A stretch of DNA of 55,869 bases from Patescibacteria group bacterium (GCA_018817595.1 JAHITU010000004.1:1-55869), one strand, 5' to 3'. Counted from the stretch's first letter, positions 3,722 to 54,748 are shown. The notes: a model not told the origin generated them from the letters alone. Numbers and translations are program-made.

Positions 3722-5194
3722 ATGATTAACCCAAATAAAATACCTCAAGAGGTTTCACATGTAACATCTACTCTCGAAAAAGCTGGTTTTGAGGCTTATT
3801 TAGTTGGTGGTTGTGTTCGAGATTTGCTTATAGAGAGGACACCCAAGGATTGGGATGTTACCACTAATGCTAAGCCTGAAAAGATTCAAGAATTATTTGA
3901 ACATACCTTTTATGAAAATACTTTTGGAACAGTAGGAGTTGTTTCGGAAGAAACAACAGATGAGACTTTAAAAACAATAGAAGTAACACCTTATCGTATA
4001 GAAGGGGCGTATTCTGATAGTCGTCACCCTGACGAAGTTGTTTTTAGTGAAAAATTAGAAGATGACTTAAAAAGAAGAGATTTTACTATCAATGCCATGG
4101 CATATAATGTTTCACATGAAACATTAGTTGATTTATATAACGGACAAGAGGATTTAAATGAAAAAACTATTAAAACAGTAGGGAAACCTGATGATAGGTT
4201 CACCGAAGATGCTTTGAGAATCTTACGAGCTGTACGTTTCGCTACTGAATTAGACTTTTCAATAGAATCAGAAACACAAGAATCTATAATCAAATTTGCA
4301 AAACATCTGGAAAATATCTCCCAAGAAAGGATTCGGGACGAATTTGTTAAGATAATAATGTCAAAAAACCCAATGAATGGTGTTATTTTAAGCCAAAAAC
4401 TAGGACTTTTGAAATATATTATTCCAGAATTAGAAATGGGGATTGGGTCCACACAAAAAGGGGCTCATATTTACAGTATTTGGGAACATAATTTAAGAGC
4501 TTTGCAACATTCAGCAGATAAGGAGATGCCATTACATATACGTTTAGCGGCTTTATTACACGATATTGCAAAACCTCACACCAAAAGATTTGATAAAATA
4601 AAAAAAGAAAACACTTTTTATGGTCATGACGTAGTAGGAGAAAGGGTTTCACGTGAAATACTAGAGAGATTAAAATTCTCTGGTAAAATCATAGAAGTTG
4701 TCCCTAAACTAGTGAGAAACCATTTGTTCTTCTCAGACATAGACCAGATTAGTTTATCAGCTGTAAGGCGAATTATAGCCAGTGTAGGGCCTGAAAATGT
4801 ATGGGATCTAATGGAACTTAGAACTTGCGACAGAATAGGAATGGGAAGACCAAAAGAAAAACCATATAGATTAAGAAAATATATGGCTATGATAGAAGAA
4901 GCTATGAAAGACCCTGTTTCTGTTAAAATGCTTAAAATAAACGGAAATCGTATTATGGAAATAATAAATGAAAAACCAGGTCCTAAAATAGGGTTGGTTT
5001 TGAATGCTTTAATGGAAGAAGTTCTAGATGATCCTAAATTAAACACAGAAGAATACCTAGAATCTAAAACATTAGAATTAATTAAATTGCCCATTTCTGA
5101 ACTAACAAAACTTAGTCAAAAAGGGGAGGAGAAAAAAGAAGCTCAACAAGAAAAGGAATTGGGGGAAATAAGAGCTAGACATAATGTGAAATAG
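3722..5194 (+). CDS. cca: CCA-adding tRNA nucleotidyltransferase / poly(A) polymerase family protein with HD domain
   Basis: LVGGCVRDLL, DWDVTT, RRDFTINA, EDALRILRAVRF and LLHDIAKP motifs. Confidence 0.95.
   Translation: MINPNKIPQEVSHVTSTLEKAGFEAYLVGGCVRDLLIERTPKDWDVTTNAKPEKIQELFEHTFYENTFGTVGVVSEETTDETLKTIEVTPYRIEGAYSDSRHPDEVVFSEKLEDDLKRRDFTINAMAYNVSHETLVDLYNGQEDLNEKTIKTVGKPDDRFTEDALRILRAVRFATELDFSIESETQESIIKFAKHLENISQERIRDEFVKIIMSKNPMNGVILSQKLGLLKYIIPELEMGIGSTQKGAHIYSIWEHNLRALQHSADKEMPLHIRLAALLHDIAKPHTKRFDKIKKENTFYGHDVVGERVSREILERLKFSGKIIEVVPKLVRNHLFFSDIDQISLSAVRRIIASVGPENVWDLMELRTCDRIGMGRPKEKPYRLRKYMAMIEEAMKDPVSVKMLKINGNRIMEIINEKPGPKIGLVLNALMEEVLDDPKLNTEEYLESKTLELIKLPISELTKLSQKGEEKKEAQQEKELGEIRARHNVK
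3751..3766. promoter_or_regulatory. Degenerate parS-like site GGTTTCACATGTAACA (inside cca)
   Basis: 13/16 match. Confidence 0.5.
4108..4123. promoter_or_regulatory. parS-like site TGTTTCACATGAAACA (inside cca)
   Basis: 15/16 match; encodes VSHET. Confidence 0.85.
4645..4660. promoter_or_regulatory. parS-like site GGTTTCACGTGAAATA (inside cca)
   Basis: 14/16 match with a perfect CACGTG centre. Confidence 0.65.
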
Positions 5195-5263
5195 TCGAAA
5201 GCCTGTAAAGTCCATAATGTCAAAAGTCAAAAAAATTCGCTTTGCGAATTTTTTTCTTTTTAA

Positions 5264-5388
5264 ATTCTGGATTGCTTTGTCATTTCGCTATGCTCTACTC
5301 CTCGCAAAGACGAATTTTGAAAAGTAAAATTCGTTACGAATCACTTTAGTGATTCGTCTTTGCGAGCGATAGCGAAGCAATCCAGAAA
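5264..5388. repeat. RPE/REP-like palindromic element (GGATTGCTT...CTCGCAAAGACG...CGTCTTGCGAGCGATAGCGAAGCAATCC)
   Basis: Nested inverted repeats. Related copies at about 11710-11850, 24630-24733 and 25770-25880. Confidence 0.8.
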
Positions 5389-5910
5389 TAAAAAACCATT
5401 AAAAAAGTCCCCAAAATGAGGCTTTCATTAAGGGGACTTTATGAATATCCCTATTTTTTGAAAGAAACAGAGGTTTCTTTCCTACTACTTTTTATGTATA
5501 TTTTACATATTTTTTAGATAAATTTATAAAGAACAAAAACAAACTACGGACTAACTATGAGTACGAACGATAAACTTTTTATTCAAATTAACAAAGGCTG
5601 GTAACTTCCCAGCAGAAATTTAAAATTATTTTTTTTCTCAATGAACTACCTGTCCTATATAATATTTTATATAAAAGACATTGTAAAGGACATAACTGTG
5701 GATAACTTTTTTATGTCCTTTATCCGGACAAACTCAATTTTTAATTTTATAATTTTTAATTTTTAATTAATTTCTAATGTCTTAATTTCTAAACATGACG
5801 AAAATTTGCTTTGCAAATTTTCGTAAAGTTTTAAACATTAAAAATTTTGATTTCTTTAAAAATTACAAAATTAAAAATTAAAAATTCCTTGTTTTTGATT
5901 AAAAACAAGG

Positions 5911-6807
5911 TTACCTCTTTCCATGAAACTTTTTATGTATATCTTTTAAATGTTTATCTGTCATATGGGTATAAATCTGAGTGGTAGAAATATCAGCATG
6001 ACCTAACATCATTTGCACTGATCTTAAATCAGCCCCATTCTCTAACAAATCAGTAGCAAAGGAGTGACGAATAATGTGAGGGGTTACTTTCTTAGTGATC
6101 CCTGCTTTGATAGCTGATTGTTTTACTAATCTTTCTACTGAACGAGTCGTTAAACGACTAGCAGGCCCTTTAGTATTTAAAGAAACAAACAGGGCATCGC
6201 TCATATCTTTTCTTTTTGCTAAATATTCTTTAACCGCTTTTTTAGCAGAATCAGAAAAGAAAACCACTCTGACCTTATCTCCTTTTCCTCTCACAGACAT
6301 TTCATCTTTCTTTAAATCAATATCAGAATTTAAAGCACATAATTCTGAAACCCGTAATCCAGTAGAAAAAAGTAATTCTAAAATGGCTTTGTTTCTTAAA
6401 CTGGCTAAATCTTTTTCTTTATAAACTCCTAATAATCTTCTTAATTCATCTTCATTAATTAAATCAAGGGAACGGTCACCAACCTTAGCCAACTCAATTT
6501 TTTCCGGAGCCAATGATTGAATTTCTCTTTTCACTAAATATTTCAAAAAACCTCTTAACGCGATAAGGTAATAATTTTGAGTTTTCTTTTTTATAGTATC
6601 TGAATTGTTTCCAGTTAATTGACGATTTAAATACAGACGATATTTTCTTAATTTCTCATCGGTAATAGCAGAGGGGGAGTCTGATTCTAAATAATCTAAA
6701 AATTTATTTAAATATCTATCATAATTCTCAACGGTTTTGAGGCTGCGTCCTTTTTCTATTTCTAGATATTCTAAAAATTCATTTTTTAATTTTTTTAAAT
6801 TAGACAT
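5911..6807 (-). CDS. xerC: XerC/XerD-type site-specific tyrosine recombinase (probable start ATG at 6807)
   Basis: N-terminal SAM-like domain (FLEYLEIEKGRSLKTVENY), then TGLRVSEL, RGKGDKVR, TPHIIRHSFATDLL and LGHADISTTQIYT catalytic motifs. No IntI-specific insertion is visible. Confidence 0.9.
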   Translation of the reverse strand: MSNLKKLKNEFLEYLEIEKGRSLKTVENYDRYLNKFLDYLESDSPSAITDEKLRKYRLYLNRQLTGNNSDTIKKKTQNYYLIALRGFLKYLVKREIQSLAPEKIELAKVGDRSLDLINEDELRRLLGVYKEKDLASLRNKAILELLFSTGLRVSELCALNSDIDLKKDEMSVRGKGDKVRVVFFSDSAKKAVKEYLAKRKDMSDALFVSLNTKGPASRLTTRSVERLVKQSAIKAGITKKVTPHIIRHSFATDLLENGADLRSVQMMLGHADISTTQIYTHMTDKHLKDIHKKFHGKR

Positions 6808-6884
6808 TTTAATTTTGTATTTTAATTTGAAATCATTATAACATAATAGAATAAAATATTGTGCGACATGAAATGCTACAATGC

Positions 6885-6914
6885 TTGACAATCTATATAT
6901 TATTGTTCTATAAT
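6885..6914 (+). promoter_or_regulatory. Sigma70-type promoter divergent from the recombinase
   Basis: TTGACA-N18-TATAAT. Confidence 0.7.
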
Positions 6915-6959
6915 ATACATAGAAGATTGAGGTTCATAAAAAATTTAAAGGAGAAGAAG

Positions 6960-7331
6960 ATGAAAAAATTTTTGGTTCTGATGCTTGCATTATTGGTTAT
7001 CATTCTGAGTTCGTTTTTAAACTCAGATAAAAATACACCTGTGCAGATGGAAGACGACTTCGTGGTCGTCCAAAGTTGTCAGGTCAACCACGAAAGAGAG
7101 TCTCTTGACCCTCTTTCGGAAAAGCTTGAGTTTGACTTCATTCGAAGTCTTCTGGAACAAGCCGTCGTTTTCGGGATTATCCCTTCGGTGGAAACGCCGG
7201 CGGTGATAAACCTTGATAAATTCGAAGAATTCACCAAATACGGTGGTGACGAGTTTCGAACATATAAGATAGCGAATGTTCCCGGGAAGGATTGCTTCAA
7301 GATTTTTAAGGAGGCAATCCATGCAATCTAA
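6960..7331 (+). CDS. Secreted or membrane-anchored orphan protein (123 aa from ATG 6960)
   Basis: AAAGGAG upstream, signal-peptide-like MKKFLVLMLALLVIILSSFL, and a downstream 14-bp perfect hairpin GGGTAAGGTAAATC/GATTTACCTTACCC. Confidence 0.7.
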   Translation: MKKFLVLMLALLVIILSSFLNSDKNTPVQMEDDFVVVQSCQVNHERESLDPLSEKLEFDFIRSLLEQAVVFGIIPSVETPAVINLDKFEEFTKYGGDEFRTYKIANVPGKDCFKIFKEAIHAI

Positions 7332-7450
7332 AACCTCTAACCTAGCCGAACCTCACTTCTGGGGTAAGGTAAATCAATTCGATTTACCTTACCCACCTTT
7401 CCGAGTTTATCAATAATCATTGGTAAATTGAGAAAGGTGATATAAATCAC

Positions 7451-7553
7451 TTGACAAGATAAGATATCTATGCTATCATTAAATTAGTTAAAGATAAGTA
7501 ATAAAAAATGAAGTCAAAAAAGACTTGACAAACAAATTACTTTATGATATCAT
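7451..7553 (+). promoter_or_regulatory. Two tandem near-consensus extended sigma70 promoters
   Basis: TTGACA(7451)-N17-TATCAT(7474) and TTGACA(7525)-N17-TATCAT(7548), both with TGn before the -10. Confidence 0.8.
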
Positions 7554-8196
7554 ACTAGTATACAGTTAAGGAAGAAAAGAATACTTTAAAAATTAAATAA
7601 AATCCTATTAGAGCTTACAGAAACATTTAGTTTCTTATCTCTAACAGGACAAGACTTTTTGAGGAAGGAGTTATAAAAAATCGAAAAATCGGTTGTTTAA
7701 CTTTTTTACTCAAGAAAAAGTTAAACAACCGATTTTTTGTTTAGAGAGTAGAGAATGTTTTGAATTATGAAATAGAATTCGTTACGAGAACTTTTTCGGA
7801 TTTTTCAGGTTTATTTTAAAAAAATTGAAGCACTAGCCATAGCTAATGTGAAATTTTTTTAGAATGAAGATGGAAAATAACGAAAAGTTCGGAGTAGAAT
7901 TATATTTTTTAATTTAAAACTAATAAGCAATTTGTATTTTCCACTCTCTTAATAAAGAGAAATAGTAGTTCTTTAAAATTGAACACATTCCATGAGTTAA
8001 AAGTGTTATTACCTTTTAGTTAATTAGTTTTTAAACAAATTAGTTAATTAGAAGGTGATAATACTAATAACTTAATAATTTTCTTTATTTAATCTAAAAT
8101 GCTTGGATAAATACGCGAGTTTATCCGTACCAAGCTAGCGCCTAGGAAGAACTTAATTGTTCAATGGCAAGATTGATGAGAGAAGAGGAGATTAAA

Positions 8197-8544
8197 ATGG
8201 AAAAAAGAATAGAAAAAATACAGGAAGCAATGAGACTTTTTAGTGAGTTGGAAAAAATCGTTCACGAACTAAAGTTCGTGAACAACCCACTTGACTTGGG
8301 GGCTCACGGTTTTTCTTGCTCTCTTAAGAGAGAGCTTGAAAAAGCCAAACAAATCAGCTTCCTTAGTGAAGCTGAAACAGCTCTTAAGGTCAGAGATATT
8401 CTGACATCCGACAAAAAAGTAAAGAGGGTTGGACCCGATACGTTTAGGATTTCCTATCCAGGAAACCCTTTTCATTACGGTTCAACAAGAGTCGAAGAAG
8501 TCGACTCAAAAGAGTTGATCCGGAGGCGCGGATCAATCTCGTAG
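8197..8544 (+). CDS. Orphan protein, array unit 1 (start 8197 or 8164)
   Basis: GAGGAG 6 nt upstream of ATG 8197; repeat A begins 5 bp after the stop. Confidence 0.7.
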   Translation: MEKRIEKIQEAMRLFSELEKIVHELKFVNNPLDLGAHGFSCSLKRELEKAKQISFLSEAETALKVRDILTSDKKVKRVGPDTFRISYPGNPFHYGSTRVEEVDSKELIRRRGSIS

Positions 8545-8549
8545 ATCTG

Positions 8550-8601
8550 TTCAAAATTCGGGGAATTCACGAGTTCATGTGAATTCCCCCTATTATTGAA
8601 A
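8550..8601 (+). repeat. Repeat A copy 1 (52-bp imperfect palindrome)
   Basis: TTCAAAATTCGGGGAATTCACGAGTTCATGTGAATTCCCCCTATTATTGAAA, identical at 9756 and 10249. Confidence 0.95.
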
Positions 8602-8685
8602 CTTTAATAAAAAGCGGAAGTTATACGGATTAAACGCAGACTAACGCAGAAGATTGAAGTTTCATAGTAGATAGTTCTTTAAAAT
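8602..8685 (+). repeat. Repeat B copy 1 plus junction motif
   Basis: CTTTAATAAAA-AGCGGAAGTTATACGGATTAAACGCAGACTAACGCAGAAGATTGAAGTTTCATAGTAG-ATAGTTCTTTAAAATT. Confidence 0.9.
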
Positions 8686-8772
8686 TGAATATTGTTAATT
8701 ATCTTATCTAGGATAATACTGATTTTATTGTTTTAGATAAGATAATTAACTTATAAAATCAAGGGGGTCATT

Positions 8773-9750
8773 ATGGAAAAATACGAGGTAGAATTAAACT
8801 TTTACCCGGTCAATCGGAATATTTTTGGCCGTTGGTACAAAAAGAAACAAAAATCAAAAAAAATATTTTCCCAGGATAGTAATTATGGGAAGATAATTTT
8901 TTTAAGCGACAAAGCAAAGTCGCAAATAAAATTTTTGGATTCTGAAAAAGAATACCGGGCAGTAGCGGTATTCTCGAGAAGAAATGAAACCTCTGAAGAA
9001 GTATTGTTTTTTAAAGGAATAAAAGCGCTGGGAGAAATTGTAGAAAGCGTTGATTATCGTGTTTTCTGCGAAAGAGGAATAATGAAAAAGATATCTTTTA
9101 TGGCAGACAAAACCGTAAAAGATGAATATAAAAATTTTCCCGATTTTTTCCCAGAAAGGCCTTACACAGATCTGGAAAAAAAAGAAATTTTGCTATATTT
9201 TTCCTTGAAAAAAACAGTAGCCGCTTTATCTCTTGAGTGGTCAGACAGGTACAAAGGATTCATTTCTCGATGGGATATGACAGGTGAAAAGTCATATAAA
9301 ATTGAGATAATGGATGGATTAAAAATTAAGGCGACGCCGTATGAAAAAATTAAAGCAAAGCTTTATTTCATAGATGTCGGCAAAATTCTCCAAAAAGAAG
9401 TCTTTGAGGAAAAAAGCCTCCTGGAAGACTCTTATATTGAATTAGATTACGAAATTCTCTCTGAAGAACATTTTCAAAGAGATGTTATCAATCAAAGAAA
9501 GGAGGTGTCTTTTGTTCAAGGAGGGGATTGGGCAAGAGGTCCATCTCGCTTCGCTCCCACCGGGAAGAGGATCGAAACAGAAATAGTGGAAGACTGGAAA
9601 AAAATTACCGCTAGGGTTTTGATTCCAAAAGATTATCATCTGTGGGTTGAAGAATACCTCCAGATAAAAATCAATGGTAATGAAATCTCTTTTAATATCT
9701 GTATCGGAACAAACACCGTTACAAAAAAAGTTATTTCAAACCATCGGTAG
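8773..9750 (+). CDS. Orphan protein, 325 aa, array unit 2
   Basis: Long ORF with AAGGGGG upstream; repeat A begins 5 bp after the stop. No family recognised. Confidence 0.8.
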   Translation: MEKYEVELNFYPVNRNIFGRWYKKKQKSKKIFSQDSNYGKIIFLSDKAKSQIKFLDSEKEYRAVAVFSRRNETSEEVLFFKGIKALGEIVESVDYRVFCERGIMKKISFMADKTVKDEYKNFPDFFPERPYTDLEKKEILLYFSLKKTVAALSLEWSDRYKGFISRWDMTGEKSYKIEIMDGLKIKATPYEKIKAKLYFIDVGKILQKEVFEEKSLLEDSYIELDYEILSEEHFQRDVINQRKEVSFVQGGDWARGPSRFAPTGKRIETEIVEDWKKITARVLIPKDYHLWVEEYLQIKINGNEISFNICIGTNTVTKKVISNHR

Positions 9751-9755
9751 AACTC

Positions 9756-9860
9756 TTCAAAATTCGGGGAATTCACGAGTTCATGTGAATTCCCCCTATT
9801 ATTGAAATTTTAAACCAAGGTTTGAAGTTTCATAGTAGTAAATAGAAGTTCTTTAATAAA
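9756..9860 (+). repeat. Repeat A copy 2, short module C and junction motif
   Basis: Repeat A at 9756-9807, then TTTAAACCAAGGTTTGAAGTTTCATAGTAG, then AGTTCTTTAATAAA. Confidence 0.95.
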
Positions 9861-9948
9861 AATAAAGTTTTGCCCTGTTTATGGATGGGATATAGTTTCA
9901 CCTTTTTAACATTTCGTTAATAAGGTACATATTTTTAAGGAGAATAAA

Positions 9949-10227
9949 ATGGAAAACTCTAAGTTGAAAACAGAAGAAAGACTTGAAGAAATTAAAAAAA
10001 TGAACTCTATTTCTGTTCTCGGTGCCGATTTAGGTTGGAACCGTGAAAGTATGTGGGTCGTTGTCAGAGAGGATGACCCATCTTACCAGAATTTGGCAAA
10101 AAAATACCCCACAGAGATTGAAAAAGTTCATACTCCTGAAAATTTTTTCATTTCAGAAAGTGATCTTCATGAAATGGAAGATATTGAGTACACAGCGTAT
10201 TCATTTGAAGGACCGTGCTTTTCATAA
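9949..10227 (+). CDS. Orphan acidic protein, 92 aa, array unit 3
   Basis: AAGGAG upstream; repeat A begins 21 bp after the stop. Confidence 0.7.
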   Translation: MENSKLKTEERLEEIKKMNSISVLGADLGWNRESMWVVVREDDPSYQNLAKKYPTEIEKVHTPENFFISESDLHEMEDIEYTAYSFEGPCFS

Positions 10228-10248
10228 AAGCTGAGTCCTTTAAAAATG

Positions 10249-10460
10249 TTCAAAATTCGGGGAATTCACGAGTTCATGTGAATTCCCCCTATTATTGAAA
10301 TTTTAAACCAAAGTTTGAAGTTTCATAGTAGATAGTTCTTTAATAAAACGCGGAAGTTATGCGGATTAAACGCAGACTAATGCAGAAGATTGAAGTTTCA
10401 TAGTAGTCTCGCCAAACTTTCCAAAAGAAAGTTAAGAGGATAAATAGTTCTTTAAAATTA
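10249..10460 (+). repeat. Repeat A copy 3, module C, repeat B copy 2 and two junction motifs
   Basis: A at 10249-10300, C ends at 10331, B ends at 10406. AGTTCTTTAA occurs at about 10334 and 10446. Confidence 0.95.
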
Positions 10461-10682
10461 AAGTTTGATAAAATCTTCTATTGTAAGATTTGCATCCTTA
10501 AGAATATGATGTAACAAACCAAACTTCAAACTCTTGTGTAAAGGAATAGTAATAGGTTTTAATTTTAAATCTTCATTTTGATGTAACCTTACATGACTTC
10601 CTTTTTTCCTAACCACAACATAACCAAGTTTTTCTAACTTTTTAATTGTTTCTTTTCCTGAAATAATTGGAAGTTTAGGCAT
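10458..10682 (-). CDS. hicA: HicA-family toxin (mRNA interferase)
   Basis: LEKLGY...KGSH-x-RL...TIP-x-H...L-x-x-G-L-L-x-x-IL pattern. Confidence 0.9.
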   Translation of the reverse strand: MPKLPIISGKETIKKLEKLGYVVVRKKGSHVRLHQNEDLKLKPITIPLHKSLKFGLLHHILKDANLTIEDFIKL

Positions 10683-10917
10683 ATTCTGGAAGATTTATAA
10701 AATGCAAACTAACATTTTGAGGTTTATTTTTTTTAGATTTTGTTTTATTTTCTTCAAGACAAAGTTCAGTAGCTTCTTTAATATTTTTTAAAGCATCTTC
10801 TATAGTATCTCCTTGGCTATAACAACCATCAAAACTTGGATTTATTACAGTATAACCTCCTTTTTCTTCTTCTTGAAGAATAACAGGAAATATTTTATTA
10901 TTTTGATTCTTTTTCAT
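10675..10917 (-). CDS. hicB: HicB-family antitoxin (short, N-terminal domain only)
   Basis: F-P-V-I-L...E-x-G-G-Y-x-V...P...G-C-x-S-Q-G-D-T-x-E-D-A-L-x-N-I-K-E-A pattern; overlaps the hicA start. Confidence 0.9.
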   Translation of the reverse strand: MKKNQNNKIFPVILQEEEKGGYTVINPSFDGCYSQGDTIEDALKNIKEATELCLEENKTKSKKNKPQNVSLHFINLPEYA

Positions 10918-11003
10918 GATAGCTTTATTTTACCAAAACTAGGTAAGAAGTCAAAAGAAAAATAATTTTTCCGAGTTCATCAATTAATTGGTGGATTCAG
11001 AGA

Positions 11004-11076
11004 AGTTCTTTAATAAAACGCGGAAGTTATGCGGATTAAACGCAGACTAACGCAGAAGATTGAAGTTTCATAGTAG
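11004..11076 (+). repeat. Repeat B copy 3 (last array repeat)
   Basis: AGTTCTTTAATAAAACGCGGAAGTTATGCGGATTAAACGCAGACTAACGCAGAAGATTGAAGTTTCATAGTAG. Confidence 0.92.
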
Positions 11077-11095
11077 TAAATTTACAAAAAATATT

Positions 11096-11224
11096 GGTAA
11101 AATAGTATATTTATAAAATGAGAAGTTAAATTTAATCTTTTGTTGGTATTTATACCGACAAAAACTCCTTCCTCGGAGATTAAAGCTAATTTCAACAAAA
11201 GTTTTATAAATATACTATTTTACC
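11096..11224. repeat. Element with 23-bp perfect terminal inverted repeat and structured interior
   Basis: GGTAAAATAGTATATTTATAAAA (11096-11118) pairs with 11202-11224. The interior contains a TTTGTTGGTAT/ATACCGACAAA hairpin. Confidence 0.75.
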
Positions 11225-11331
11225 TGTATTTTAACAAACTGTTTCAATACAGACAATAAAGGCTACATAATAGTTAAATACAGCACTTTATCCTTGCAAT
11301 TATTAATAAATAGTGCTATTATTCACTCGTT

Positions 11332-11598
11332 ATGTTATCAAAGACAAAGAAAGAAAACGCAATAAAAAAGACACAAACACACAAGACTGACACTGGTTCT
11401 CCAGAAGTGCAGGTTTCTGTTTTATCCAAAAAGATTGACGAATTAGCTAATCATTTAAAAATCCACAGAAAAGACAGACACTCAAGAAAAGGATTACTTC
11501 AAATGGTTGCAGACAGAAGAAAACATTTAAAATATTTACAAAGAAAATCAGTTAAGAGATATACTAAAGTAATTAAAACTTTAGGACTTAAAAAATAA
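11332..11598 (+). CDS. rpsO: 30S ribosomal protein S15
   Basis: HKTDTGSPEVQV...HLKIHRKDRHSRKGLLQMVADRRKHLKYL. Confidence 0.98.
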   Translation: MLSKTKKENAIKKTQTHKTDTGSPEVQVSVLSKKIDELANHLKIHRKDRHSRKGLLQMVADRRKHLKYLQRKSVKRYTKVIKTLGLKK

Positions 11599-11734
11599 AA
11601 TACTTTTAAACAACAACCGCTTCTGCGGTTTTTGTTTTTTTAAAATACTGCTATACTATATTTGTCTAAATCATCATATATATGAAATAGATTTTTTAAT
11701 ATTAAAACTCTGGATTGTCGCGTCATTTCACTAC

Positions 11735-11785
11735 GCCTGCCTGCCCCTGCGCGCCGGCAGGCATGGGCAGGCATGGGCAGGCAGG
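11735..11785. repeat. CCTGCC-type REP-like palindrome nested in an RPE-like element
   Basis: CCTGCCTGCCCCTGCGCGCCGGCAGGCATGGGCAGGCATGGGCAGGCAGG interrupts a copy of the 5264-type element. Confidence 0.8.
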
Positions 11786-11941
11786 CTACATTCCTCGCAA
11801 AGACGAAAAGTAAAACTTTTCGTAACGAATTTTTGCAAAGCAAAAATTCATATACATAAATACTTAATTATAAACAAAAGGAAAAACTATTATTTTTTCC
11901 TTCTAACTAGCTAATAACCTAAATAGCTAAAACCTAAATAT

Positions 11942-12586
11942 ATGACCGTAATTAAACACAAAGAACAAAGGGTAGGGATTTTTATTGATGCTCAAAATCT
12001 TTATCATAGTGCAAGAAATCTGTACTCAGCCAAAGCTAACTTTAAACAAATTTTAGAAGATGCTGTAGCTGATAGAGCATTAATCAGAGCTATTGCTTAT
12101 GTTATTACTACAGAATCAGGGGAAGAATCAACTTTCTTTGATGCTTTAGTAAAACTTGGAATAGAAACAAAAACAAAAGACCTACAAATATTTTTTGGAG
12201 GAGCTAAAAAAGCTGATTGGGATGTTGGTTTAGCCGTCGATGCAATTAAAATATCACCTAAATTAGATACTGTTATAATCGTTTCTGGAGACGGGGATTA
12301 TATTCCTTTGGTTGAATACTTACAAATAAGCCAAGGTTGCCAAGTTGAAGTAATTGCATTTGGAAAATCATCTTCTTCAAAACTGATTGAAGCGGCAGAT
12401 GATTTTCTTGATCTTGATTCTGATCCACAAAAATATTTAATGAATTATGGAAAAAGAAATACCCAACGAAAACAAAAAGGGAAGCAACAAAATAAACCTC
12501 AACAAAAGAAACAAAGCTCTTCTAAAAAAGTGCAAAAAAATCCTATTTTAAACAAAAAAGCACAAGACGGAAGAATTACTATTTAA
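11942..12586 (+). CDS. NYN domain (LabA/DUF88, PIN-like) protein
   Basis: IFIDAQNLY, KADWDVGLAVDA, IVSGDGDYIPLV and LIEAADDFLDL motifs. Confidence 0.93.
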   Translation: MTVIKHKEQRVGIFIDAQNLYHSARNLYSAKANFKQILEDAVADRALIRAIAYVITTESGEESTFFDALVKLGIETKTKDLQIFFGGAKKADWDVGLAVDAIKISPKLDTVIIVSGDGDYIPLVEYLQISQGCQVEVIAFGKSSSSKLIEAADDFLDLDSDPQKYLMNYGKRNTQRKQKGKQQNKPQQKKQSSSKKVQKNPILNKKAQDGRITI

Positions 12587-12636
12587 TATTACTTTTATAT
12601 TTTGCAAAGGTGACACAAAAGTGATACACTAATACA

Positions 12637-12867
12637 ATGATCAGCCCAACAAAACAAAGACTAAATATCACATTATCCAAGGATGATAAAACTTTTTTAG
12701 AAATGATTTCTAAAAAGGAACAAAAACCTGTAGCCACAAAAGCTAGAGAGCTTTTAGAAATGGCAATAGAAATCCACGAAGATTATCAAATTGAAAAACT
12801 TATCAATGATAGAGAGAAAAACTCAAAAGGTAAATATATAAAATTTGAAGATGTATGTTGGGAGTAA
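12637..12867 (+). CDS. Ribbon-helix-helix-like antitoxin
   Basis: RLNITLS N-terminal strand; overlaps the downstream RelE-like gene. Confidence 0.7.
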   Translation: MISPTKQRLNITLSKDDKTFLEMISKKEQKPVATKARELLEMAIEIHEDYQIEKLINDREKNSKGKYIKFEDVCWE

Positions 12868-13154
12868 AAAAATATAACATCATTTTAGAACCAGTAGTTT
12901 TATCTATTGATCTTAAAAAAATATCTAGTAAAAACAAAGATATTATTAAAAAATCTATTCAACAAAAACTTACAAGTTACCCCGAATTATATTCTTTTCC
13001 TTTAAGAAAACTTCTAGGTAATTATAGAAAATTAAGGGTTGGAAAATATAGGGTTATTTTCAGAATAGATATAAAAAAGAAAGAATGTTTAATTATAGGA
13101 ATTAGGCACAGAGAAGATATCTATCAAAAGATTTCAAAAAGATTAAATGAATAG
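12855..13154 (+). CDS. relE: RelE/ParE-family toxin
   Basis: PLRKLLGNYRKLRVGKYRVIFRI...IIGIRHREDIY pattern. Confidence 0.85.
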   Translation: MLGVKKYNIILEPVVLSIDLKKISSKNKDIIKKSIQQKLTSYPELYSFPLRKLLGNYRKLRVGKYRVIFRIDIKKKECLIIGIRHREDIYQKISKRLNE

Positions 13155-43384: not shown

Positions 43385-43702
43385 ATGTCTTTAAATCCAA
43401 AAGAAGTACAGAAATTAATCGAAAGATTTGAGAAAGATATTATTTATGATTGTCATAGTCTTAGAACAAGACTTTCTCGTTCAGAAGCAAGAGAAAAATT
43501 GAACGAGATGGGTAGAGATGCTTTAAGACCAATTATAGATCATCTTAAGATTAATTCTCCTAAAGATGAGTTAGCTGAAGCTTGGAATACTCTTTTTGCT
43601 TGGATTGAAAAAGATATTGATCCTAAAAGATCAGGTCCTAAATATGTAGACTCTGGAGAAATTATTAACTGGATTGAATGGGCGGAGAAATTTACCACCT
43701 AA
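43385..43702 (+). CDS. Orphan helical protein
   Basis: AAGGAG upstream, its own promoter-like TTTACT-N17-TATATT, and a downstream terminator hairpin. Confidence 0.7.
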   Translation: MSLNPKEVQKLIERFEKDIIYDCHSLRTRLSRSEAREKLNEMGRDALRPIIDHLKINSPKDELAEAWNTLFAWIEKDIDPKRSGPKYVDSGEIINWIEWAEKFTT

Positions 43703-54328: not shown

Positions 54329-54748
54329 ATGGAAATTAAGATTGATGTAAAGATGCTCGATTTCGGATTAAACACAATAAATGTTGTCGGTCCGAATGAT
54401 AAAATTATTGATACTTATTATGGTATCTTAACAAAAACAGGAAAATTCTTTCTTACAGAAGAAAGTGGGGACCTATGTTTTTTTGAAGATTGGGATGCTG
54501 ATTTTACAGCATTTCATCTAGAGGAAATGGGTGTGGAGTTGAATATTGAGCAACTTGAGTTGCTCAATAAAATCCAAAAAGCTTGCGCAGGAAATTCCAG
54601 TGCTCCTGTCAATAACTTCCTCTTCAGAAACCCAAAAAGTCCTCTTTTTGGACAGAGCATTGAATATTTTTATGATTTTTTTGAAGAAAAAATAACCATA
54701 AACAATCTTTTTCTGTTGTGTTGTGCCAAACAGAACAGAAGGAGCTAA
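54329..54748 (+). CDS. Orphan protein
   Basis: TTGACA-N18-TATAAT promoter at about 54249, GGAG upstream of the ATG, and a downstream terminator hairpin. Confidence 0.7.
   Translation: MEIKIDVKMLDFGLNTINVVGPNDKIIDTYYGILTKTGKFFLTEESGDLCFFEDWDADFTAFHLEEMGVELNIEQLELLNKIQKACAGNSSAPVNNFLFRNPKSPLFGQSIEYFYDFFEEKITINNLFLLCCAKQNRRS

Follow-up and report, generated by a model that had tools for sequence, protein, structure and literature searches.

A hypervariable accessory-gene array with putative RNA-level unit boundaries between xer and rpsO in a Patescibacteria genome

The interval between the genes for a Xer-type tyrosine recombinase (xer) and ribosomal protein S15 (rpsO) was analyzed in a stretch of 55,869 nt (the window) from a low-G+C (30% G+C) groundwater Patescibacteria genome (GCA_018817595.1, JAHITU010000004.1:1-55869). 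It is best explained as a lineage-specific, hypervariable accessory-gene array whose boundaries are RNA-level signals, not integrase sites. We give roughly a 55% probability to a more specific reading, in which the array consists of RNA-framed cassettes that are expressed by read-through, with BoxA/Nus antitermination reloaded at each unit, and remodelled by recombination between frames. Nus loading, read-through transcription, and the recombination route are the parts that we infer. An initial annotation of the window had proposed an integron-like capture array. The repeats, their folding, and the related loci establish that the array is real and that its one-gene units end in conserved structured junctions, and the integron-like layout stands, but the proposed capture by the recombinase is not supported. 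The elements of the array and its borders are as follows, with ORF denoting open reading frame and SD a Shine-Dalgarno site.

7451-7553, plus strand: two tandem near-consensus promoters (TTGACA-17-TATCAT, each with TG), with starts at 7451 and 7525
7560-7745, plus strand: small-RNA-like leader with an SD-like box, GAGGAAGGAGTT, at 7661-7672 and a strong terminator hairpin at 7679-7742
7945-7978, plus strand: array entry site, a hairpin (7945-7960) and BoxA no. 1 (GTTCTTTAAAA, 7968-7978)
7995-8196, plus strand: structured leader of cassette 1, with a 29-bp G·U-rich hairpin and a domain pairing a U-rich tract with the SD region
8197-8544, plus strand: cassette ORF1, 115 amino acids, orphan, SD-led, G+C content at third codon positions (GC3) of 0.41
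8550-8601, plus strand: repeat A copy 1, stem 8560-8589, flanks GTTCAAAA and CTATTATTGAAA
8590-8670, plus strand: hairpin C with a 45-nt apical insert (module B), covariance model score of 56.8 bits
8674-8684, plus strand: BoxA no. 2, consensus match
8773-9750, plus strand: cassette ORF2, 325 amino acids, SD-led, near-orphan
9756-9838, plus strand: repeat A copy 2 (9756-9807) and hairpin C (9796-9838), z = -7.1
9848-9858, plus strand: BoxA no. 3, consensus match
9949-10227, plus strand: cassette ORF3, 92 amino acids, SD-led, no Pfam or NCBIfam family
10249-10331, plus strand: repeat A copy 3 (10249-10300) and hairpin C (10289-10331), z = -7.9
10334-10457, plus strand: cargo-less frame, with BoxA no. 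4 (10335-10345) and a B core and end motif to 10406
10415-10457, plus strand: second part of the cargo-less frame, a small hairpin (10415-10435) and BoxA no. 5 (10447-10457)
10458-10682, minus strand: hicA
10675-10917, minus strand: hicB
11004-11076, plus strand: last frame, BoxA no. 6 (11005-11015) with a B core and end motif
11088-11232, plus strand: structured element 5' of rpsO, with 31-nt closing arms and AACTCCTTCCTC at 11163-11174

The initial annotation had located the repeats, the end and restart motifs, the ORFs, hicBA, and the recombinase correctly. Repeat A (52 nt) occurs in three identical copies at 8550, 9756, and 10249 (0 expected by chance in the window). The end motif, the 17-mer TTGAAGTTTCATAGTAG, occurs in five copies ending at 8670, 9838, 10331, 10406, and 11076 (0.02 expected), the restart motif AGTTCTTTAA in six at 7967, 8673, 9847, 10334, 10446, and 11004, and module B in three with 0 to 2 mismatches. 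All of these elements lie on the plus strand within 7960 to 11080 and nowhere else in the window. The initial annotation had drawn the span from 6900. The signal-peptide-like ORF at 6960 to 7331 (GC3 of 0.48) stands apart, as a unit that has a promoter and a terminator of its own and neither BoxA nor a junction repeat. The copy number of repeat A was estimated from the word depth of the 52-nt A unitig in the source metagenome run, which was 242.7 compared to 66 to 70 for unique flanks, or about 3.6 copies. With so few copies, repeat A is not a genome-wide repetitive extragenic palindromic (REP) sequence, a possibility that the initial annotation had raised against an array. Related loci (numbered with the prefix L) came from a metagenome scan with the end motif, which returned two true relatives (L008 and L013), and from contigs around close Xer homologs, which returned three more arrays (L017, L020/L023, and L031).

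By its sequence, the restart motif is a BoxA-type signal. All six copies, reading GTTCTTTAA(A/T)A, fit the published BoxA consensus GYTCTTTAANA (PMC5725501), and GUUCUUUAAAA in RNA is a predicted NusB-S10 binding site. The six copies are on the sense strand at unit starts, and the one other match in the window is on the antisense strand of a gene; 1.3 matches per window are expected by chance. Related arrays carry GTTCTTT(A/G)A at the equivalent position. Each BoxA follows a hairpin at a distance of 0 to 8 nt (39 nt in one case) and lies in a 5' leader downstream of the consensus promoters at 7451 and 7525, which are the likely source of array transcription and are both kept in L017, L020, L031, and L024. 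The array opens with the hairpin at 7945 to 7960 and then BoxA no. 1, an entry site that is kept in L017 and L031 and constitutes a seventh element in addition to those described initially. In Bacillus subtilis rrn leaders, a small hairpin is directly followed by a boxA-like sequence; the boxA consensus in rrn leaders is AUGAUCUUUGAAA in B. subtilis and UGCUCUUUAACA in Escherichia coli, and the rrn antitermination complex is reported to interfere with intrinsic termination and to block Rho (PMC13753749). No rRNA gene was found in the window or the related loci.

Each junction folds into two adjoining hairpins (RNA folding, z about -7), of which one is formed by the 11-bp stem of repeat A. It is a gene-end, terminator-like hairpin that passes a simple terminator scan. 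Repeat A itself starts 5, 5, and 21 nt past the stop codons of ORF1, ORF2, and ORF3. The second hairpin has about 19 bp with one bulged U and lies between CTATTATTGAAA... and ...TTTCATAGTAG. Modules B and C of the initial annotation are both present, but they are not separate modules: C is the second hairpin with a 4-nt loop and B differs from it by 45 nt inserted at the apex, which makes them two versions of one conserved hairpin.

Each genome has its own version of the hairpin A stem, whereas its flanks, GTTCAAA(A/G) and CTATTATTGA, do not vary; the retention of flanks and structure as the stem changes indicates selection on function and not the decay of transposed copies. Hairpin C was aligned from ten sequences representing six arrays. 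In this alignment, 99.5% of the cells are paired, compensatory change is seen at five pairs, none of the U·G pairs varies, and all 500 shuffles and every slid control do worse. The sense strand folded better than the antisense strand in all 15 junction and leader segments compared from five arrays, by 2 to 33 kcal/mol, and the antisense strand of hairpin C has A·C mismatches where the sense strand has G·U. Selection on the structures therefore acts on the transcript or, with lower probability, on the top strand of the DNA.

A covariance model of hairpin C, run over 257 kb of related loci, found it only inside arrays. Two scans of viral contigs returned only chance matches inside coding sequences and no array elements, and a scan of genome contigs with the repeat A stem (in a collection without the window's genome) returned seven single chance palindromes in other phyla. 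In Rfam searches, 5000 to 13000 gave only noise, and tRNAs were the sole matches to reach the gathering score.

The gene order cca-xer-[gap]-rpsO-NYN-pnp is kept in relatives, and the gap takes three forms:

Xer identity of 71 to 72% (L073, L074): a gap of about 190 bp with nothing inserted
Xer identity of 76 to 78% (L024, L026, L072): a gap with one ORF and the small RNA
Xer identity of 75 to 85% (L031, L020/L023, L017) and the window itself: a gap filled by arrays

The array is an insertion hot spot, with the small RNA on its left and the structured element 5' of rpsO on its right. The small-RNA-like leader occurs in relatives with and without arrays, and the element at 11088 to 11232, kept in L017, L024, and L031, is the right border of the variable region. 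These two elements are both kept in L017, L024, L031, and L072, with or without an array between them, and the box GAGGAAGGAGTT in the left element is complementary to AACTCCTTCCTC in the element 5' of rpsO.

A common grammar runs through the arrays. The 3' part of a gene ends in a stop codon, GTTCAAA(A/G), and the genome-variable hairpin stem, followed by CTATTATTGA(A/G)AYTTTAA, a variable filler, and TTGAAGTTTCATAGTAG or a compensated variant of it. After a spacer of 0 to 39 nt between end motif and BoxA, at times holding a small hairpin, come (A/T)GTTCTTTAAA, a structured leader, and an SD with its ORF. The same grammar is found in genomes with Xer proteins only 75 to 85% identical and in contig L008, which has 41% G+C. 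The cargo is different throughout: no cassette ORF is common to two arrays by all-against-all BLASTP, and the comparison of xer-rpsO intervals that the initial annotation had called for showed gene content wholly different between relatives.

Changes between close relatives fall within the conserved frames. L020 and L023 share the same Xer protein and an identical 1,320 nt upstream of xer and then have different first cassettes; identity is lost inside the leader hairpin and regained in a common 30-nt trailer after the stop codon. In contigs from run X3, the tail follows module C without anything between them (10331>11079), and other contigs of that run keep the window's order, B and then cassette 2. 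Breakpoints at the repeats had been expected; they lie inside leader and trailer frames and not at one fixed junction point, which fits homologous recombination. In L031, three of three cassettes are bracketed by a perfect 10-nt inverted repeat, of which one arm, AATACAGATT, lies in the leader some 45 nt past BoxA and the other, AATCTGTATT, just past the last stop codon (9164/8500, 8285/7606, and 7464/6530, minus strand; no further copies in the 13-kb locus). By analogy with the helices around rRNA, these repeats may form a leader-trailer helix.

The array ORFs are a distinct gene class. They have SD sites and GC3 of 0.31 to 0.48, compared to core genes that almost all lack an SD and have GC3 of 0.06 to 0.24. 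The orphan character noted initially was borne out by database searches: ORF1 has no homolog among 5.8 billion proteins and no Pfam or NCBIfam match, and ORF2 likewise has no homolog among the 5.8 billion, with two distant relatives among 1.84 billion representatives, of which the one in L075 is SD-led and then followed by TAGTTCAAAAGG. The reversed toxin-antitoxin pair, hicBA, does lie on the minus strand; it has its own promoter (10954-10927), a core-like composition with GC3 of 0.06 to 0.16, and no SD. The junctions contain no consistent sigma-70 promoter. A promoter split between TTGAAG and the bases next to it was considered and rejected because the spacing to -10-like hexamers is inconsistent between copies. 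The leader of cassette 1 folds to -68.5 kcal/mol on the sense strand and -35.2 kcal/mol on the antisense strand, and homologous leaders stand 5' of unrelated ORFs in L013, L023, and L020. This structured leader of about 200 nt (7995-8196 in the window; L013 780-567, minus strand; L023 about 530-327, minus strand), found before unrelated ORFs in three genomes and without an Rfam match, may be a translational riboregulator.

On the reading that we favor, each unit would start with a BoxA (GUUCUUUAA(A/U)A) that serves as a NusB-S10 loading site on the transcript and is followed by a structured leader and an SD. Each unit would end with GUUCAAAA, the terminator-like hairpin of repeat A, and the conserved hairpin C/B abutting the next BoxA, in the hairpin-then-BoxA order of rrn leaders. 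Transcription would begin at the 7451 and 7525 promoters and pass the small-RNA terminator, and RNA polymerase would be made termination resistant at each BoxA, so that promoterless, foreign-looking genes could be expressed despite gene-end hairpins and Rho. The hairpins probably also act as processing or stabilising ends. Genes would turn over by homologous recombination between junctions, leaders, and trailers, within and between strains, and such recombination between frames would leave cargo-less frames (10334-10406) and the mosaics A-B, A-C, and A-C-B. The segment at 10334 to 10457 may be such a frame, left without its gene. Xer would be the chromosome-dimer recombinase and the ancestral neighbor of rpsO, with no demonstrated part in the array.

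Several observations weigh against this reading. BoxA is short and AT-rich in a genome of 30% G+C, and the six copies are not independent since they arose by duplication; where B stands alone, folding predicts that some of BoxA is paired within the hairpin. A search of RNA runs found the stretch in no RNA-seq run. Leader-trailer pairing of the window's own cassettes is no better than in shuffles. The reading assigns no role to the conserved 17-mer TTGAAGTTTCATAGTAG or to the GTTCAAAA box, and hairpin C, with its 7-bp base, one bulged base, and variable tip, resembles a folded attC site. Finally, homologous recombination covers the exchange of cassettes but not the first acquisition of a frame by unrelated genes.

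The neighboring genes that bear on alternative explanations are the following.

5911-6810, minus strand: Xer-type tyrosine recombinase gene (Pfam Phage_integrase and SAM_1), divergent from the array and transcribed away from it, as noted initially
6885-7394, plus strand: moron-like separate unit, with a consensus promoter (6885-6914), an SD-led ORF (6960-7331), and a terminator hairpin (7362-7394)
11332-11598, plus strand: rpsO, with a proximal promoter at 11294-11322

Integron-like capture by this Xer is an unlikely alternative, though the best placed of those considered. Hairpin A and/or C would fold in single-stranded DNA and work in the manner of attC sites or of the attP hairpin of CTX phage, with one-gene circles excised and entering near 7960. 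The array immediately adjoins xer in four genomes, the entry site has a further copy of ATAGTAG, and many assemblies stop just upstream of xer. As in an integron, the units are apparently promoterless, hold one orphan ORF each, share one orientation and a common promoter, include a reversed toxin-antitoxin pair and a cargo-less unit, and differ wholly in content between relatives; the likeness of hairpin C to folded attC is loose.

The recombinase itself argues against capture. It scores about 253 to 256 bits with the NCBIfam XerA, XerD, and XerC models and 132.6 bits, in two pieces, with the integron-integrase model TIGR02249 (cut-off of 265 bits), which favors Xer in the choice between Xer and IntI posed by the initial annotation; no IntI insertion is present. 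Thousands of homologs at 65 to 85% identity across Patescibacteria mark it as the resident single housekeeping Xer. Because xer and rpsO are adjacent without an array in L073 and L074, this adjacency is ancestral and older than the array. Xer is probably a bystander, and the caveat in the initial annotation that the adjacency could be incidental has proved the better reading.

The DNA features of the array also differ from recombination sites. It contains no RYYYAAC or GTTRRRY cores, its conserved boxes being GTTCAAAA, CTATTATTGAAA, and TTGAAGTTTCATAGTAG. Between the two arms of the C palindrome lie 4, 6 to 7, 10, 15, 28, or 45 nt, depending on the copy, a spread that excludes a duplex dif-like Xer site, and no 28- to 31-bp site with arms of about 11 bp and a fixed 6- to 8-bp center, as in Xer/dif modules, was found. 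A duplex 11-6-11 reading of GAAATTTTAAA-CCAAGG-TTTGAAGTTTC was rejected for the same reason, the center being 4 to 45 nt in other copies. Integrons recombine the bottom strand, and here the sense strand folds better and the other carries the A·C mismatches. The L020/L023 breakpoints away from the junction, the variable spacer between end motif and BoxA, and the lack of any cassette shared by two arrays also argue against capture. A folded single-strand Xer site is unlikely, since strand polarity, the lack of attC cores, a distance to the unit start that varies, and the kind of Xer present all speak against it. The conserved Xer, the BoxA restart motif, the sense-strand hairpins, the arm separations, and the breakpoints off the junction leave the earlier proposal that the neighboring recombinase acts on non-attC sites without support.

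An ordinary accessory operon or mobile-element remnant, with locally duplicated terminators and leaders and with BoxA as an AT-rich coincidence, is improbable. It would account for the terminator scan, for the chance frequency of GYTCTTTAANA, and, by local duplication, for identical copies within a genome. It would not account for a grammar, compensatory changes, and an invariant 17-mer that persist at 75 to 85% Xer identity and in L008, for BoxA at the equivalent position in all related arrays, or for cargo that forms a distinct SD-led, high-GC3 class.

Least probable, and in our view very much so, is that the junctions are a small non-autonomous mobile repeat, an A/B/C mosaic like bacterial interspersed mosaic elements (BIMEs), BOX elements, or miniature inverted-repeat transposable elements (MITEs), inserted among the genes of an ordinary island: BIMEs and pneumococcal BOX elements are likewise mosaics of modules in varied combinations, copies within the genome are near-identical, and the window's genome carries several hairpin-repeat families, but the population genome holds only about 3.6 copies of A where REP, BIME, and MITE families have many dispersed ones, none lies outside an array in the 56-kb window or the 257 kb of related loci, every copy has the same orientation in phase with gene ends, target-site duplications and terminal inverted repeats are lacking, and relatives keep flanks and structure while the stem changes.

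Other features were observed around xer. The sequence ATTGTGCGAC(A/T) lies about 40 nt 5' of the xer start codon (window 6851-6866; also L017, L024, L031, L072, and L074) and is probably an xer operator or promoter element; it was rejected as a dif site since it sits, operator-like, in the xer promoter region of all relatives examined. The xer-cca interval (window about 5560-5730, minus strand; L017 11360-11600; L024 4575-4790) contains a perfect DnaA box, TTATCCACA, that adjoins repeats of the motif GTCCTTTA as well as a promoter-like site. Next comes a sequence resembling BoxA, which reads GTTCTTTGAAA in the relatives and GTTCATTGAGA in the window, and then a short non-coding stretch that ends in a terminator. 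This interval may hold an unannotated small RNA gene with a BoxA leader. Genes for insertion sequence-type transposases with an rve domain are found directly upstream of xer in L027 (965-1846) and, in L072 (12716-13597), on the far side of cca at roughly 4 kb from xer, and many assemblies end 100 to 2,300 bp upstream of xer; together, these suggest that the region is recombination prone or hard to assemble.

Between the small-RNA terminator and the first BoxA, the 168 nt at 7757 to 7924, with 39-nt inverted repeats (7788-7826 and 7852-7890), look like an inserted palindromic element, and they are missing from a relative in run X4 (joint 7756>7925). Elsewhere in the window, SD-led ORFs, most with raised GC3, occur at 216-506, 6960-7331, 43385-43702, and 54329-54748; those at 216-506, 6960-7331, and 54329-54748 each have their own consensus promoter and terminator and no BoxA, in a moron-like arrangement. 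The NYN-domain gene and pnp have a second toxin-antitoxin pair between them (12637-13154), consisting of a ParE-family toxin and a small ORF upstream of it. Summed word depth is high at 5800 to 5890 and 11730 to 11800 (mean of 4,867 in the bin 5800-6006 and 3,047 at 11742, versus about 67), where copies of highly repeated elements are located, one AT-rich and one GC-rich and palindromic.

More tentatively, and with considerable doubt, the array might represent an integrase-independent cassette platform of a Patescibacteria clade, in which the RNA frame (BoxA, structured leader, SD, cargo, gene-end hairpin, and hairpin C) gives both Nus-antiterminated expression of promoterless foreign genes from one strong promoter and the homology for swapping, losing, and gaining cassettes. 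If true, the platform would do the work of an integron by means of RNA signals and would occupy the rpsO-pnp operon leader; in a bolder version, the single Xer would in addition recombine hairpin C as a single-stranded site. The genomes of Patescibacteria are tiny, and not many ways are known in which they acquire and express accessory genes; a standard RNA frame would, if true, provide one for expressing and exchanging orphan genes. Nus/BoxA antitermination, known from rRNA, a few mRNAs, and CRISPR leaders, would then also cover whole arrays of protein genes. The 11-nt BoxA, the 19-bp hairpin, and the invariant 17-mer are handles for reporters and metagenome searches. The case is also a warning that integron-like systems should not be called from layout alone.

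No description of such an array was found in the literature searched, and the known systems compared each share part of its organization. Integrative mobile elements exploiting Xer (IMEX) at dif and the pdif modules of Acinetobacter plasmids are likewise small modules with toxin-antitoxin pairs near a Xer system. Unlike them, the array has no 11-6-11 site and no identified dif, and its repeats are direct rather than alternately inverted. Sedentary chromosomal integrons and clusters of attC sites lacking integron-integrases (CALIN) resemble it in their rows of short, mostly orphan genes, which lack promoters, make up one unit each, point the same way, and end in a palindromic structure, and also in a reversed toxin-antitoxin unit, upstream promoters, a divergent tyrosine recombinase, and content that varies between relatives. 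The array differs from integrons in having no IntI or attC cores, in folding on the sense strand, in its varying junction-to-start distance, and in showing no breakpoints at a single fixed position.

In the PeSL cassettes of T4-type phages, composite conserved regulatory motifs with a stem-loop flank orphan ORFs in hyperplastic regions, and close relatives differ by insertions, deletions, and replacements with breaks in these motifs (PMC2839356, PMC4122927); exchange takes place by homologous recombination between the motifs (PMC2839356). The replacements and indels among array relatives similarly break in motifs (L020 versus L023 and the X3 joint 10331>11079). PeSL elements carry a strong sigma-70 promoter and reside in phages, whereas the array junctions carry BoxA, with no promoter recognized, and the array is chromosomal in a bacterium. 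With BoxA/Nus sites (rrn boxB-boxA-boxC, lambda nut, the suhB leader, and CRISPR-array leaders), the array shares the 11-nt consensus, the transcript strand, and the position in a 5' leader after a hairpin, the last as in E. coli and B. subtilis rrn leaders (PMC13753749), and a similar function of keeping RNA polymerase going through hairpins and Rho targets is what we infer for it. No boxC was recognized. Unlike nut and rrn sites, the array couples BoxA to a conserved 19-bp hairpin and a 17-mer, and unlike all of these sites, it repeats BoxA at every unit of a protein-coding, hypervariable row.

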